Source: a virus (Duplodnaviria; Heunggongvirae; Uroviricota; Caudoviricetes). From it: 6,798 nt of DNA. Shown one piece after another: positions 13-6,643 of this stretch. A model generated the notes under the pieces. It saw only the letters and a list, made by a program, of their open reading frames with translations. It searched no databases and had not been told where the DNA came from. Each line of letters starts with the position of its first letter. Position 1 is the stretch's first letter. The stretch lies in the IMG/VR virus record IMGVR_UViG_2690316243_000012; one strand, given 5' to 3'. The position numbers and the translations under genes were made by a program.

Positions 13-1290
13 TTAAGCGCAGCTATTTAGTGAATTAAGTAAATTAGTCAGTGACCTTGTAAAGTCTGTTAAACCTTCCTGTGAACCATCGAACATTAAG
101 GCCAGATTATTATTCCATGAATTACTTAAGCGGCCTAACTGCGTCTGAGTAGAGTTAATAATCTTTTCCCATCCACCAGCTTTATCAATCATCCTTCCCA
201 TTTCAGCGGATACTTTAGGAAGAACATCTTTAGAAAGAACCTTACCGTCTTTCATGGCCTTGTCTAATTCTTCCGTAGTCATCCCAAGACTTCTGGCAAA
301 TAACTGAAAAGCACCTGCCATTCTGTCACCTAATTGACCGCGTAGCTCTTCAGCCTGAATCTTTCCTTTAGATGCCATCTGCTCGAAAGCTTTTAAAATC
401 CCGTTAATTTCATCGGTGCTTAGCCCCATTAATCTGGATGTACCAATCACATTAGAAAATAAGGATTCTTTCTGGTCTGCATTCATATCACCAGCACCAG
501 CGGAAAACTTAGCAAAACTGCTTAATGTTTCAATCTGGTCTACACCACTACTATCAGCAAGATTCTTAACAAATTCTGTAGCTCGTTTAGCACCTTCATC
601 ACCTAAAACGAATTGTGCCGCTCGTTGTGATGCTTCTTTTTTCAGACCAACCTCCATAATCCGCCTGTAAGCTTCTAAGGCTGTCTGAAAACTATAAATG
701 GCTGTACCTGCTTTGATTGCACTCGTAGCTAATACATCCAGACTATTTGAAGCATTTTCACTGTGATTATTTTTGCTGGTGGTCTTGTTAAACTTAGAAA
801 GTGTTTCACGAAGAGACTGATTTAACTTTGCTAACTCACGATTAAAAGTTTCGTTTCCAAGTGTCTTGGATTTACTGCTTAAGCTGTAATACTGGCTTTT
901 AAAATACTTCTCAAGCATAGGATTAAAGTCACGAAGCTTGCTCATATTCGCTGAGTAAGCTGCTGTGATTGCTCTGCTTCCGCTAATTCGTGGCTGTCTT
1001 GGTTGTCTAAGTGGCTTTAAAGTATCCTCAATTTCAGTTTTAATCTTAAACGCTCTAGTGTTTTTAAGACGCTGCTCAATCTTGGAAACAGTTTTATCGA
1101 CATTTCTTTCCATTAGTTTGAGAGAATCATTTAAAGGCGTAGGATTAACTCTAAACGACTTATTCAATCGCTTCTCAATTCGTGATGCTACCTGCATCGT
1201 TTGTTTCTCGGCTTTTTCCAAGCCTTTTAAAACTTTCTGAGAGTTAAAACTTAACTCAATCAGAAAATCATCAACTTTAAATTGTGCCAT
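13..1290 (-). CDS. Phage tail tape-measure-domain protein (425 aa); atypically short, domain near C-terminus
   Basis: ORF-track ORF. ATG at 1290-1288 with SD AAAGAGGTG about 10 nt upstream (rc of 1299-1307); TAA stop at 15-13. Residues ~285-385 (SKGKIQAEELRGQLGDRMAGAFQLFARSLGMTTEELDKAMKDGKVLSKDVLPKV) match the duplicated GK..EEL / G.S/T.EEL.K...GK...D.LPK signature I recall from the conserved core of tape-measure proteins. The N-terminal ~280 aa are K/E/S/N/L-rich (coiled-coil-like). Product call is from memory, not a search. Confidence 0.6.
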   Translation of the reverse strand: MAQFKVDDFLIELSFNSQKVLKGLEKAEKQTMQVASRIEKRLNKSFRVNPTPLNDSLKLMERNVDKTVSKIEQRLKNTRAFKIKTEIEDTLKPLRQPRQPRISGSRAITAAYSANMSKLRDFNPMLEKYFKSQYYSLSSKSKTLGNETFNRELAKLNQSLRETLSKFNKTTSKNNHSENASNSLDVLATSAIKAGTAIYSFQTALEAYRRIMEVGLKKEASQRAAQFVLGDEGAKRATEFVKNLADSSGVDQIETLSSFAKFSAGAGDMNADQKESLFSNVIGTSRLMGLSTDEINGILKAFEQMASKGKIQAEELRGQLGDRMAGAFQLFARSLGMTTEELDKAMKDGKVLSKDVLPKVSAEMGRMIDKAGGWEKIINSTQTQLGRLSNSWNNNLALMFDGSQEGLTDFTRSLTNLLNSLNSCA

Positions 1291-2617: not shown

Positions 2618-2904
2618 AAAGCTGTAAAGGATTCAATAATGAATGAACAAAGACTTTTTGAGATAGCCTCTCAGACCAACCTGAAAGGCTAGGACGAAAA
2701 GCATTGCACCTTTCCAACTCAGAATATCCATCCATCGGATTATTGAAAGAAAAAATAAGAGAGAATTGCTCTCCCCCATATATACAATTATGTCATGCTC
2801 AAGGTTGTTTGTCAACAGCTTTTAACAGATTGGTAACATTTATACTTTAATAGATGCACCTGCAATCATACCAATCAATACAAAACAGATAATCACCAAT
2901 TCCA

Positions 2905-3248: not shown

Positions 3249-3370
3249 CAGACCTCCTCAATCGCTCTGTAACGAGCTAAACAGTCTTTTTCAGGGGTAG
3301 CCTGTACAGTGGTATTACCCACCCTAAAATAAGATAGTTTTTTGCGTTAGAATGCGATTGAGAGCGTCTG
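3249..3370 (+). repeat. Repeat element copy A: ~122-bp element with imperfect ~27-bp terminal inverted repeats
   Basis: Left arm CAGACCTCCTCAATCGCTCTGTAACGAG (3249-3276); right arm GCGTTAGAATGCGATTGAGAGCGTCTG (3344-3370), whose reverse complement CAGACGCTCTCAATCGCATTCTAACGC matches the left arm at about 19 of 25 positions. Homologous to copy B (4901-4998) and, inverted, to copy C (6286-6392). Lies between two minus-strand genes, its left end 21 nt from the ATG at 3228. Confidence 0.65.
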
Positions 3371-3406
3371 ATAAGCTGTTTTTCTAATTTCTCTTAAAGT
3401 CTCGGA

Positions 3407-3881: not shown

Positions 3882-4160
3882 TCAGACCTCCTGAGACAGT
3901 TTGTGAATTTTGATACTTAGTAACCTTGCTAAATCCAGTCCAAAAGCATTTAAGGATTTCAGACTATCAAGGTCATCTTGCTTAATCCTGATATGGTGTC
4001 TTGCAGCCTCTAAGCGACTATTAAGCAAATCCTGTTCGTTAATATCACGGTTAATTGCAAGCTTCATCACTGCTGAGTGTGGCAGACCTGTAATGTTTTT
4101 GATTCGGTTCAGTTCATCAAAGGCTGTCTTTGTAACTCTGGTTAATGTGTGTTTATTCAT
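3882..4160 (-). CDS. Hypothetical small protein (92 aa), possibly DNA-binding
   Basis: ORF-track ORF. ATG at 4160-4158 directly follows the TAA stop of the 185-aa gene (minus strand TAAATG) with SD GAGGA 8 nt upstream; TGA stop at 3884-3882, 2 nt before the next ATG. No recognisable family. Confidence 0.5.
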   Translation of the reverse strand: MNKHTLTRVTKTAFDELNRIKNITGLPHSAVMKLAINRDINEQDLLNSRLEAARHHIRIKQDDLDSLKSLNAFGLDLARLLSIKIHKLSQEV

Positions 4161-4718
4161 TTAAAAATCCTCTGTAACTAAATAGGGGTCAAACTCGAAA
4201 TCTGGTTGCTCGTTTTCCATTGGCTCAATATTCCCAACGGCAATATGATGTTCAACAATGCCAATTAATTTCGCGCACATCACAGCAAGCAAAGCGCAAT
4301 ATTTATCGCTTGGTAATTCGTAACTAAGTCTGGTTGCCTGTCGCTGAAGATGATTTGTCACGGTGGATGCGTTAATTTCGTCAAGATTCTTTAGCAGATA
4401 AAATAGTTTTTTGTTGTATTTCGGGTGGCCTTCACTTCTACAGAACCCAATAAAAACATCATCAAGCTTGCTTGGTAACTGCTCGTAACTGTCAAAGTTA
4501 GCCAGATAATTTTTAATAGTATTCTTTGTTGTTTTGCGTACTGGCATAAATCTGTCTCGTGGCGTAATGCTACGAATGACCGCTTCAATGTTCTTACGTT
4601 CGGATTTGCTAAAGGTTGGGACTTCGTAGCTGGTGGGGTTGTTTGTGTAAGCGTAGGAGTTGTGCTTGTTGCGTTCTCTTGATGCCTGAAGCATCGCTCT
4701 AAATTCTGAATACTGCAT
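4161..4718 (-). CDS. Hypothetical protein (185 aa); first gene of the minus-strand operon
   Basis: ORF-track ORF. ATG at 4718-4716, TAA stop at 4163-4161. About 45 nt downstream of the predicted minus-strand promoter; the SD is weak (GAGAG ~11 nt upstream). No recognisable family. Confidence 0.6.
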   Translation of the reverse strand: MQYSEFRAMLQASRERNKHNSYAYTNNPTSYEVPTFSKSERKNIEAVIRSITPRDRFMPVRKTTKNTIKNYLANFDSYEQLPSKLDDVFIGFCRSEGHPKYNKKLFYLLKNLDEINASTVTNHLQRQATRLSYELPSDKYCALLAVMCAKLIGIVEHHIAVGNIEPMENEQPDFEFDPYLVTEDF

Positions 4719-4769
4719 TCATGTTCTGACTCTCATAAGATGTTATTATTCTGTTAACCTATATATACA

Positions 4770-4798
4770 ATATTAGCATTTTCAAAGACTAATGTCAA
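4770..4798 (-). promoter_or_regulatory. Candidate sigma70 promoter for the minus-strand operon
   Basis: On the minus strand: -35 TTGACA (rc of 4793-4798), 17-bp spacer, -10 TAATAT (rc of 4770-4775). Read directly; the -35 matches consensus perfectly. Confidence 0.5.
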
Positions 4799-4804
4799 GT
4801 ATTT

Positions 4805-4834
4805 TTAACATTTTCGTAACATCTGTGGTATAAT
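4805..4834 (+). promoter_or_regulatory. Candidate sigma70 promoter with extended -10, driving the plus-strand small-protein transcript
   Basis: -35 TTAACA (4805-4810), 18-bp spacer, extended -10 TGgTATAAT (4826-4834). Its -35 is 6 bp from the -35 of the divergent minus-strand promoter. Confidence 0.55.
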
Positions 4835-4900
4835 GGGTTTATGGGGAGAGTAAAATATGAGGCGTGGCTATGTATTTGGTCGCATATTTTGCATTGCACA

Positions 4901-4998
4901 CAGACCTCTTCAATCGCCCTGTAACGAGTTAAACGACCTCTTCAGGTCAACTCATAAGGTCAGGTACTTTTTGTGTCAGAATGCGATTGAGAGCGTCT
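4901..4998 (+). repeat. Repeat element copy B: ~98-bp homologue of copy A, in the leader of the small membrane-protein gene
   Basis: Left arm CAGACCTCTTCAATCGCCCTGTAACGAG (4901-4928) matches A's left arm at 26 of 28 positions; right arm GTCAGAATGCGATTGAGAGCGTCT (4975-4998) carries the same AGAATGCGATTGAGAGCGTCT core as A. The interior shares the first ~20 bp with A (TAAAC..CT.TTCAGG), then is ~20 bp shorter. Ends 15 nt before the ATG at 5013. Confidence 0.65.
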
Positions 4999-5012
4999 TA
5001 CAAGGAAAACTA

Positions 5013-5189
5013 ATGGTAAATCTCCCTCCTGAGCTGGGGTCACCTGATGTATGGACTGGTGGAGGTATTGGGCTGATTGCAGGCCTGCTACTTCGCTACG
5101 TCCTCGTCAGAGTGCTTGTTGTCTTTAAACTGTTCGGTCGTACATGGACGCTTGACCTTAAGGATAACGACCACACAGACCCCCGTTAA
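5013..5189 (+). CDS. Small single-pass membrane protein (58 aa); candidate toxin, holin-like or exclusion peptide
   Basis: ATG at 5013 with SD AAGGA 7 nt upstream; TAA stop at 5187-5189. Translation MVNLPPELGSPDVWTGGGIGLIAGLLLRYVLVRVLVVFKLFGRTWTLDLKDNDHTDPR has one hydrophobic helix (about residues 15-41). The track ORF 4857..5189 is the same frame extended to an ATG at 4857, which has its own SD GGAGAG; that N-terminal extension is encoded entirely by repeat copy B, so I prefer the short form. Confidence 0.5.
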   Translation: MVNLPPELGSPDVWTGGGIGLIAGLLLRYVLVRVLVVFKLFGRTWTLDLKDNDHTDPR

Positions 5190-5200
5190 ACTCCTTCAAA

Positions 5201-5260
5201 ACCCCTGCACGAGATGACAGATAGAAGTCTATGGTACAGGGGTGTCTTTAGCATTTTGTG
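5201..5260 (+). terminator. Candidate terminator-like hairpin after the small membrane-protein gene
   Basis: Perfect 7-bp stem ACCCCTG (5201-5207) / CAGGGGT (5237-5243) with a 29-nt loop that has its own short inverted repeat (ATAG..CTAT), followed by the T-rich GTCTTTAGCATTTTGTG. The large loop makes this a weak call. Confidence 0.3.
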
Positions 5261-5324
5261 CTATCTATTAAAAAATAGCTTGACAGAACCGGAAAGCTGT
5301 ATCTATCAAGCATTCACCTCTCTG

Positions 5325-5501
5325 ACAGTAATTTCTAAAAGTTCTTATTTTTCAATAAGTTGTAATTAGCCATATATAGAGAACTGACAAGTCTCTTCAC
5401 AGACAACTCTGCAACCTTAACAGTAACTTCTAAAAATGCTTATTTTTCAACGAGTTGTAATCACCCAATATATAAGGCTGTCCAGTACCTTCACAGATAA
5501 C
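5325..5501. repeat. Tandem direct repeat, two ~83-bp units at a ~95-bp period
   Basis: Unit 1 (5325-5407) and unit 2 (5420-5501) share ordered blocks ACAGTAA, TTCTAAAA, TTATTTTTCAA, AGTTGTAAT, ATATATA, CTTCACAGA, AAC, with divergent sequence between them (by eye roughly 70% identical). A partial third copy (ACAGTAACTT plus AT-rich tail) is at 6457-6490. Confidence 0.7.
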
Positions 5502-6285
5502 TTCAAGCCCTCTTAACCGCCCCACTAATCGGGAGAAGAGCGATAACCCCAGAGAGGGAAGCTCCTTTCTTAACCGACCTCTTAAACGACCTTTACAGAC
5601 CTTGTTCAAGGTAATCACAATAGTTTTTCTTCCCTCGGTTTCCTGTGTTCCTCGGCTGGCTATTGAGATTTGAAAGACCTCTGTAAGCGCTCTCTTAGCG
5701 AGAGAAAAATCATTCATAGTGACCCCAAGCGAAGCGCCCCTCTAAAAAAAGATTTTTTAGCTATTTTGTTTAAAAGCATATCAAACGATACATTTTATTG
5801 ATTTAGGTCAAAGACAAAAGCATTGACAAAATGGTAAGATTGTTCACATGACCTTACTTAACAGACTTTTAAGAGACTTTGAAACAGCCTGTTTAACAGG
5901 TCACTACCTCTGGTCTTATCGTTCCCTTCTTTCTAGGTGGTTATCTGTTAAGAGTTTTTCAGTTTTTATTCTTAAGATAATTGTTAAGATGATACTCTCC
6001 CTTCGGGTTATATCGTATCTCTTCTCCCGTTAAATATCCCTTCACAGTCAGACTAAATAACACCTGTGTAGTTCTTGGTAGAATCTTTCAAGGTAACTTA
6101 GCTCTGAGTTTATGAAGTTGACCTATGAGATAGACTCTACCGAATCTGTTAGTCAATTGTTGCTTAGGTGCTGCTAAGGCTTACTTAGTGGAAAGAGAGG
6201 GGATATGTGACCATAGGGGAACCCCTCCTGTTAAAAGACTACTTAGAAGTCTGAGGTTTTAGTAAAATCTGTGAATATGGCTTCT

Positions 6286-6392
6286 CAGACGCTCTGTAAC
6301 GCATTCTAAGCGATTTTACCCCTTTATTTTAAGGTGGTTAGTACATCCCTATAGGTTACCCCTAAAAATGGGGTTAAAACTCGCTACAGAGC
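6286..6392 (-). repeat. Repeat element copy C: inverted, diverged copy of element A/B lacking the outer left arm
   Basis: Plus-strand CAGACGCTCTGTAACGCATTCTAAGCG (6286-6312) matches the reverse complement of A's right arm (CAGACGCTCT....GCATTCTAA identical apart from CAATC to GTAAC). The reverse complement of 6313-6392 aligns with A's interior and inner left arm (AGGGGTAACCTATAGGG vs AGGGGTAGCCTGTACAG; CCACCTTAAAATAAA vs CCACCCTAAAATAAG; GCTCTGTAGCGAG vs GCTCTGTAACGAG). Confidence 0.55.
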
Positions 6393-6643
6393 TTTCTATG
6401 AGATTAGCTTCTAATCGAATCAACTATGAGGTTTGGTAGGATTGTGCAAAATCTGTACAGTAACTTTTCAGAATCTGAAAATTTTTATAAAAAATGACTA
6501 GCCCTCTTTGAATCTCATCTTCCCCGAATCTTCAAAAATATCTGACAGATGTCTGTAGCTGCTAAGTACCCGTCACACCAGCTATGTGACCCCCTTGGCA
6601 AAAAAGCCAAATATCAGCTACATCCATGTAACTATTCAGTAAC

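Follow-up and report, generated by a model that had tools for sequence, protein, structure and literature searches.

Conserved back-to-back promoters carrying ArcA-type direct repeats in a phage-like integrative island

Here we focus on a stretch of 6,798 nucleotides, referred to as the window, taken from a viral record assigned to the Caudoviricetes (IMG/VR record IMGVR_UViG_2690316243_000012), and in particular on the region from which two sets of genes diverge (Table 1). The leftward first gene is the 185-aa ORF, as the initial annotation had it, and it heads a series of co-oriented genes continuing with a 92-aa ORF and an HNH endonuclease gene. Between these genes and the rightward ones lie two sigma-70-type promoters, PL and PR, which occupy opposite strands and have the correct -35/-10 spacing of a back-to-back pair. 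A consensus scan confirmed both of the -35 hexamers proposed initially together with the gap of 6 bp between them. PL (TTGACA-17-TAATAT) agrees with the consensus at 10/12 positions and PR (TTAACA-18-TATAAT) at 11/12, and both possess an extended -10 TG. Placed about 7 nt after each -10 from the position of the hexamer, the predicted start of PL is at ~4763 and that of PR at ~4841, ~78 bp apart. The G+C content of 4720-4840 is 27%, and no consensus site for LexA, CRP, FNR, IHF, Fur, Fis, PhoB, OmpR, CpxR or NarL was found in 4700-4870.

Table 1. Features of the divergent region and of the third strong promoter, by position in the window.
Feature	Position	Strand	Basis and remarks
Third strong promoter, TTGACA-17-TGaCATAAT	2787-2815	-	11/12 + TG; conserved
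Third ArcA-type unit, ATGTTACCAA-T-CTGTTAAAAG	2819-2839	-	Directly upstream of the -35 of the 2815 promoter
92-aa gene, second of leftward operon	3882-4160	-	ORF
185-aa gene, first of leftward operon	4161-4718	-	Protein predicted to be all-helical; heads co-oriented genes
Left ArcA-type unit, ATGTTATTAT-T-CTGTTAACCT	4740-4760	+	Two TGTTA cores, 11 bp apart; contains GTTAAC
(TA)n tract at predicted PL start	4760-4767		(TA)4 in the window; alignment
PL extended -10, TGcTAATAT	4770-4778 (hexamer 4775-4770)	-	Consensus scan; TG invariant
PL -35 hexamer, TTGACA	4793-4798	-	Consensus scan; invariant in 13 aligned copies
Right ArcA-type unit, ATGTTACGAA-A-ATGTTAAAAA	4802-4822	-	Includes the TAACAT repeats; covers PR -35 and spacer
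PR -35 hexamer, TTAACA	4805-4810	+	Consensus scan, alignment; reverse complement of the ArcA core TGTTAA
PR extended -10, TGgTATAAT	4826-4834 (hexamer 4829-4834)	+	Consensus scan; invariant in all copies
Predicted untranslated PR leader, ~170 nt	4841-5012	+	No codon bias; conserved linker UUGCAUUGCACACAG
58-aa hydrophobic protein gene, first rightward gene	5013-5189	+	Intact in 12/12 copies
Conserved terminator-like hairpin CCCCTGCAC...GTACAGGGG with U-rich tail, after the 58-aa gene	5202-5260	+	Sliding RNAalifold, z = -8.3

Taken together, promoter-like sites are not unusually numerous in the window (22 against 16.5 +/- 4 expected). Three of them, PL, PR and one further site at 2815, score at least 10/12 and have the extended -10 TG, a result that none of 1000 Markov shuffles reproduced (mean 0.18), and a back-to-back pair of sites of at least 10/12 arose in 0.7% of Markov shuffles. 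The divergent region was aligned from 13 copies found in E. coli, S. sonnei, E. albertii and Citrobacter. Across these copies the PL -35 and the PR -10 are each invariant at 6/6 positions and both TG motifs are kept, with the PL -10 reading TGcTAGTAT in many relatives. Both promoters are also kept in the Salmonella island, and their conservation thus spans Escherichia, Shigella, Citrobacter and Salmonella. The back-to-back geometry described initially is above what shuffles yield and is shared among relatives, and the divergent region reads as a genuine conserved regulatory hub of a phage-like integrative island of ~11 kb. The (TA)n tract at the predicted PL start is reduced to (TA)3 in complete S. 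sonnei chromosomes and in one E. coli copy, which alters by 2 bp how far the left repeat unit stands from the PL -10.

The nature of the first rightward gene had to be revised. It had been taken for a small membrane protein, and such a gene is real, but it is the 58-aa ORF rather than the 110-aa ORF that begins at ATG 4857. The latter is spurious, as several relatives have lost its ATG and codon-position bias is lacking in 4857-5012 (12/17/12 variable sites). The 58-aa gene has in-frame indels only, and its variable sites number 26/14/37 by codon position in 12 copies; it has homologues in this island family only, all without a name. The predicted leader ahead of it folds more stably than shuffles do (z = -2.9), its 5' end pairing in the predicted fold with the start of the 58-aa coding region. 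The predicted PR transcript (4841-4850) and that of the 2815 promoter (2780-2770, minus strand) both start with AUGGGG(G)AGAG. This purine run can pair in the PR leader with CUCCCUCC, just inside the 58-aa coding region, and the same start forms the 5' hairpin of the 2815 unit.

The leader also contains a variable hairpin module of ~110 nt (about 4895-5004), which is absent or replaced in some relatives. Three copies of the module, of ~110-130 nt, are found in the window, at 3249-3375 (+), 4895-5004 (+) and, inverted, 6243-6309. Its ends are complementary (CAGACCTCTTCAATCGC ... GCGATTGAGAGCGTCTG) and its centre is variable; it is restricted to this island family (398 E. coli genomes, with a median of 1 place per genome), and the copy at 3249 often adjoins the HNH gene. 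Antisense control between the copies at 4895-5004 and 3249-3375 was considered and rejected, because they do not consistently occur together: among the loci compared, L002 and L004 have the leader copy only, while L005, L007 and L008 are without it.

The 2815 promoter is the only strong promoter of the window besides PL and PR. Within 2590-2839 on the minus strand it is followed by a unit of ~190-250 nt, in which a covarying hairpin at the 5' end comes first, then the invariant 20 nt GAAAGGUGCAAUGCUUUUCG folded as a hairpin, then a further hairpin that persists although its stem has three different sequences, and last a terminator at 2617-2597. The unit stands directly upstream of the genes for a 236-aa protein, a 69-aa protein, the tape measure protein and the Dit-like protein. 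No Rfam family matches the unit; it could encode an sRNA, or else form a terminated leader RNA that precedes late genes. A search for targets of this RNA was abandoned, with RNAduplex returning mostly artefacts and exact complementarity yielding only matches of 9-12 nt.

The island to which the window belongs is best described from intact copies. At ~11 kb, these carry in order a large serine recombinase at one end, a Dit-like baseplate protein, a tape measure protein and small uncharacterised proteins, followed by the HNH endonuclease, the 92-aa and 185-aa genes, ~2 kb without annotated genes, and a variable cargo of a small serine recombinase, Dam and an AP2-type protein. No capsid, terminase or recognisable replication gene is present (L001 16650-27950; L020 6200-17100), and the family may be one of phage satellites. 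The early region is modular, with the E24377A island having genes of 330 aa and 98 aa in place of those of 185 aa and 92 aa. At least three insertion sites are used (tonB-yciI, wrbA-ymdF and the yecE region), and the hosts include E. coli, S. sonnei, E. albertii, Citrobacter and Salmonella. Related DNA occurs in 544 of 5426 complete E. coli genomes (about 10%), with 86-91% identity among the best matches listed. A megablast search of the window against phage and plasmid collections gave no match, and nothing on this island was found in the literature.

In complete S. sonnei chromosomes the locus adjoins yciI and is riddled with IS elements, one of which lies after the tape measure ORF. The window itself has a tape measure ORF (13-1290, minus strand) of 425 aa, as against about 690-710 aa in intact islands. 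Together with the IS element, the short ORF implies that the island copy of the window is probably defective. Three complete S. sonnei chromosomes (L012-L014) lack 361 nt (5386-5746) and are otherwise 99-100% identical to the window, which therefore derives from a longer variant of the S. sonnei-type island.

Two further properties of the island DNA were observed. The first is a complete lack of GATC, with 0 occurrences in the window against 20.7 +/- 4.1 expected in 6798 nt. It is likewise absent from island copies outside inserted IS elements (L001 16650-27870, L003 1-9000, L020 5300-17100 and L021 2226-12362), compared with about 1 per 200-300 bp in the chromosomal flanks, and some GATC-free copies nevertheless encode a Dam-family methyltransferase. 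The second is a segment of ~1.4 kb (5260-6640) that is 78-93% conserved across genera and has no conserved ORF or RNA structure. Within it lie a tandem duplication of 95 nt (5317-5502), four to five CAGTAACTT-like motifs and a nearly invariant block at 5780-5850; the segment is possibly an origin, a packaging site or a set of binding sites. That the 2 kb without annotated genes might form one large structured RNA was dismissed, with no Rfam match at E <= 1, and sliding RNAalifold from 5300 to 6050 detected no conserved structure. A 95-aa ORF in this stretch (5430-5717, minus strand) was also discarded, being interrupted by indels in relatives.

The observation that no repressor gene is apparent next to the promoters holds, and it extends to the other island genes in the window, none of which matches a regulator family. 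Searches of Pfam, PHROGs, NCBIfam and PADLOC gave no CI/Cro, HTH, RHH or other regulator among the island proteins, the only matches being to TMP and HNH. A Shigella sonnei protein found on >1000 contigs matches the 185-aa protein at 100% identity. The family of the 185-aa protein is very narrow, with 19 representatives at E <= 0.001 among 1.8 billion, and the model of the protein has a reasonable helical core (pLDDT 72.6). For the 92-aa protein the AF2 model is poor (pLDDT 51). A tandem ribbon-helix-helix fold looked plausible by eye for this protein and was dropped; profile searches of Pfam, NCBIfam and the PDB gave no significant match and no internal repeat was seen. No DNA-binding family was matched by the sequence or the fold of either protein.

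Outside the promoter hexamers, the invariant bases of the 13-copy alignment are four TGTTA/TAACA pentamers. TGTTA is found at 4741 and 4752 on the plus strand and TAACA at 4806 and 4817, with the members of each pair 11 bp apart. Part of this had already been noticed as two TAACAT repeats and a GTTAAC palindrome that could be operator sites. The TAACAT repeats are indeed operator-like, with the first copy at 4806-4811 as given and the second at 4817-4822, 1 nt from the position assigned to it. GTTAAC is present as well, at 4753-4758, again 1 nt away; it makes more sense as the second TGTTA core in a pair of direct repeats than as a palindrome. Counted from starts predicted by hexamer position, the left unit would lie at about +4 to +24 of the PL transcript and the right unit at about -39 to -19 of PR. 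Together the two units make up a 20-nt inverted repeat (4738-4757 / 4805-4824, from a repeat search). It is the sole inverted repeat found, and no dyad-symmetric operator lies between or over the promoters. Among copies the two units stand 63 to 66 bp apart, a variation that speaks against a loop of strict phase.

The repeats are conserved in a particular manner. Three of the cores are invariant (5/5, 5/5 and 5/5) and the copy that doubles as the PR -35 is so at 4/6 positions, while the 6-nt gaps between cores vary (2/6 and 2/6). Invariant cores with variable gaps would be typical of a repeat-binding factor. Exact TGTTA-N6-TGTTA sites number three in the window against 0.03 expected, a count reached in 0/200 shuffles, and all three are located at the three strongest promoters. 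The 46-kb locus L001 has no exact site apart from the three of the island, and the Salmonella island carries the same three. The units at the divergent promoters have two repeats each and none further, but additional phased repeats occur elsewhere: in most relatives the site at 2819-2839 is an array of three, the third overlapping the -35 of the 2815 promoter, and in E24377A there are four.

Distant and variant islands carry two to four phased repeats within their own predicted promoters. In the L016 island, whose 185-aa homologue is only ~30% identical, the sequence reads TTGACAa-ATGTTACAGAA-ATGTTACTAT and the unit falls inside the spacer of a 10/12 promoter, TTGACA-16-TACTAT. The L018 island has ATGTTACAGAAATGTAATAAT upstream of its 185-aa homologue. 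In the E24377A island the four phased repeats ATGTAAATGAG-ATGTTGACAAT-ATGTTAAATAG-ATGTTAAGATT enclose a 10/12 promoter, TTGACA-17-TAAGAT, and overlap a divergent promoter.

ArcA and ArcB are encoded by Escherichia, Shigella, Salmonella and Citrobacter, and it is the binding site of ArcA that these repeats resemble. The minimal site of ArcA-P consists of two 10-bp direct repeats, ATGTTAAAAA-1-ATGTTAAAAA, spaced 11 bp centre to centre, of which TGTTA is the most conserved part and to which one to three further in-phase repeats are commonly added (PMC4173790). At the level of sequence, the island repeats have every feature of ArcA operators: at least two direct TGTTA repeats at 11 bp in three sites of the window, a match to the consensus that extends beyond the core, and extra repeats at a phase of 11 or 22 bp in the 2815 and E24377A arrays. 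The match to the consensus is 18/20 for the right unit, 16/20 for the third unit and only 13/20 for the left unit, which by this count is weaker outside its TGTTA cores. The right unit is the best match in the window and 60 kb of E. coli chromosomal flank combined, the maximum in the flank being 15/20. In most relatives it reads ATGTTAATGAAATGTTAAAAA, which is near the TGTTAAGTAAATGTTAA footprinted by ArcA-P in plasmid R1.

With no island repressor apparent, the simplest explanation is a host-encoded regulator that acts alike on both promoters. From the identity of the motif we infer that this regulator could be ArcA, and that host ArcA-P represses PL and PR and so ties the expression of the island to oxygen is the reading we favour, at about an even chance. 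The right pair of repeats covers the PR -35 and spacer, and ArcA-P bound there would occlude PR. The left pair would lie just downstream of the PL start, an arrangement also seen at the ArcA-repressed promoter icdA P1. The positions of the sites, at -39 to -19 and +4 to +24, thus predict repression. Under anaerobic or microaerobic conditions ArcA-P would occlude PL and PR, and rising oxygen would release both. PL would then drive the operon of the 185-aa, 92-aa and HNH genes and those beyond, and PR the long leader with the 58-aa hydrophobic protein. With ArcA-P on both, the promoters would form a co-regulated pair and not a toggle. The third ArcA-type site, at the 2815 promoter, would place the whole island programme under the same signal. 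As the region has a G+C content of only 27%, silencing by H-NS may be superimposed, as at the PY promoter of plasmid R1.

Even between deeply diverged islands the repeats accompany the 185-aa gene family, which would also fit autoregulation by the 185-aa protein. A protein of the island, likeliest the 185-aa or the 92-aa product, would then bind the TGTTA repeats, autoregulate PL and control PR, and the likeness to ArcA sites would be coincidence or mimicry. We consider this unlikely. As described above, neither protein resembles a DNA-binding family. An operator read by such a protein should also drift along with it, but at 30% identity of the 185-aa homologue the core is still TGTTA in the 11-bp phase, and the E24377A island, which is without the 185/92 module, has an array of four repeats all the same. 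Moreover, the units occur at four different positions and orientations relative to promoters, which would suit a general repressor.

It is also conceivable that there is no dedicated regulator, and that the promoters are constitutive or only silenced generically by H-NS as AT-rich foreign DNA, with the repeats kept as overlaps of promoter elements. TGTTAA is the reverse complement of the -35-like TTAACA, and ATGTTAAnAT resembles an extended -10, such that some repeats may be kept as promoter elements. The inner repeat of the right unit coincides with the PR -35 hexamer, the TG and -10 of the L016 and E24377A promoters come from a repeat, and the low G+C content of 4720-4840 would favour silencing. 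However, the left unit and, at the 2815 promoter, the two upstream repeats lie clear of any promoter hexamer, and their cores are invariant amid neighbouring bases that vary. With three exact sites where 0.03 would be expected as well, the lack of any dedicated regulator is distinctly improbable.

Control at the level of RNA was considered for the 58-aa gene, which as a small hydrophobic protein behind a long structured leader has this trait of type I toxin-antitoxin systems. In such a scheme, comparable to trans-encoded pairs of this type or to the RNA immunity of phage P4, the PR leader and the ~190-nt 2815 RNA would set the expression of the 58-aa protein. In its favour are the stability of the ~170-nt leader and the pairing of its 5' end with the coding start, as well as the promoter, covarying hairpins, invariant 20-nt segment and terminator of the 2815 unit. 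The only candidate for a cognate RNA comes from a 9-nt match, in which the invariant loop GUGCAAUGC of the 2815 unit is complementary to GCAUUGCAC (4891-4899), a conserved linker of the leader that is predicted to be single-stranded. With a probability of about 0.01 of arising by chance and a central mismatch in the Citrobacter copy, this match is suggestive at best. The consensus scan found no antisense promoter opposite the 58-aa gene, and RNA-level control would affect the rightward gene only, leaving PL unexplained. We rate it as highly unlikely to account for the region; it would in any case be compatible with control of initiation by ArcA and not an alternative to it. A bistable switch of the CI/Cro type, with each of the two divergent first genes encoding a repressor of the opposite promoter, is extremely improbable in spite of the switch-like layout noted initially. 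The back-to-back arrangement does recall lambda PR/PRM, the predicted starts being ~78 bp apart, but the rightward gene encodes a hydrophobic protein of 58 aa, no gene is CI or Cro or matches any HTH or Cro-like family, and the promoters have no dyad-symmetric operators between them.

Repression by ArcA-P can be compared with two systems in which ArcA sites have been characterised. At icdA P1, ArcA-P protects -12 to +21 and represses transcription (PMC4173790), and the left unit of the island at about +4 to +24 would fall largely within the same range. Promoters of the icdA P1 type share with the island TGTTA direct repeats at an 11-bp centre-to-centre spacing (PMC4173790), and arrays of two to four repeats over the core promoter or early transcribed region are found in both. 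Unlike icdA, the island has two inverted candidate units bracketing a divergent pair in horizontally acquired DNA, and its putative target genes are uncharacterised rather than belonging to respiratory metabolism.

The second system is a mobile element that makes use of ArcA. In F-like plasmids the PY (traY) promoter, studied in R1, is controlled by ArcA (SfrA), TraJ and H-NS, and ArcA-P leaves a footprint on TGTTAAGTAAATGTTAA (PMC7303359). Like the island, R1 PY is a key promoter with TGTTAA-N5-TGTTAA in AT-rich, H-NS-prone DNA (PMC7303359); most island copies read TGTTAATGAAATGTTAA where R1 PY reads TGTTAAGTAAATGTTAA. The site in R1 lies at -76 to -60, from where ArcA activates by counter-silencing with an element-encoded partner (PMC7303359). 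In the island, by contrast, the positions of the units predict repression, and no partner is known.

Phage and satellite control regions offer two further comparisons. Lambda PR/PRM are back-to-back sigma-70 promoters with starts about 80 bp apart that are operated as a switch by CI and Cro. The island similarly has back-to-back sigma-70 promoters at the control centre of a phage-like element, and differs in being without CI or Cro genes and without dyad operators, and in that both of its promoters are predicted to respond alike. P4, a satellite without a repressor and with RNA-based immunity, resembles the island as an integrative phage-related element of ~11 kb without a recognisable protein repressor, and in both a short structured RNA unit ending in a terminator precedes later genes. 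No homology between their genes was seen, and control of the island is proposed to occur through a host protein at initiation.

To our knowledge, no phage-like island has been described before in which ArcA represses a divergent control region. A broader reading, which we put forward tentatively and hold to be doubtful as a whole, is that the islands are an undescribed, repressor-less, satellite-like family of ~11 kb, marked by genes for a large serine recombinase, a tape measure protein and Dit, by complete avoidance of GATC and by an early region built of modules, whose whole programme is gated by host ArcA with oxygen as the primary on/off signal. The programme in that case would comprise both divergent promoters and the promoter from which the terminated leader RNA in front of the tail genes is made. 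Should ArcA indeed hold these promoters, a phage-like chromosomal island would be set by the oxygen or redox state of its host and not by a repressor of its own. Its induction logic would then be unlike that of SOS-controlled prophages, which respond to DNA damage, or of helper-induced satellites, which respond to an antirepressor of the helper phage, and it would be relevant to gut pathogens as they cross oxygen gradients.
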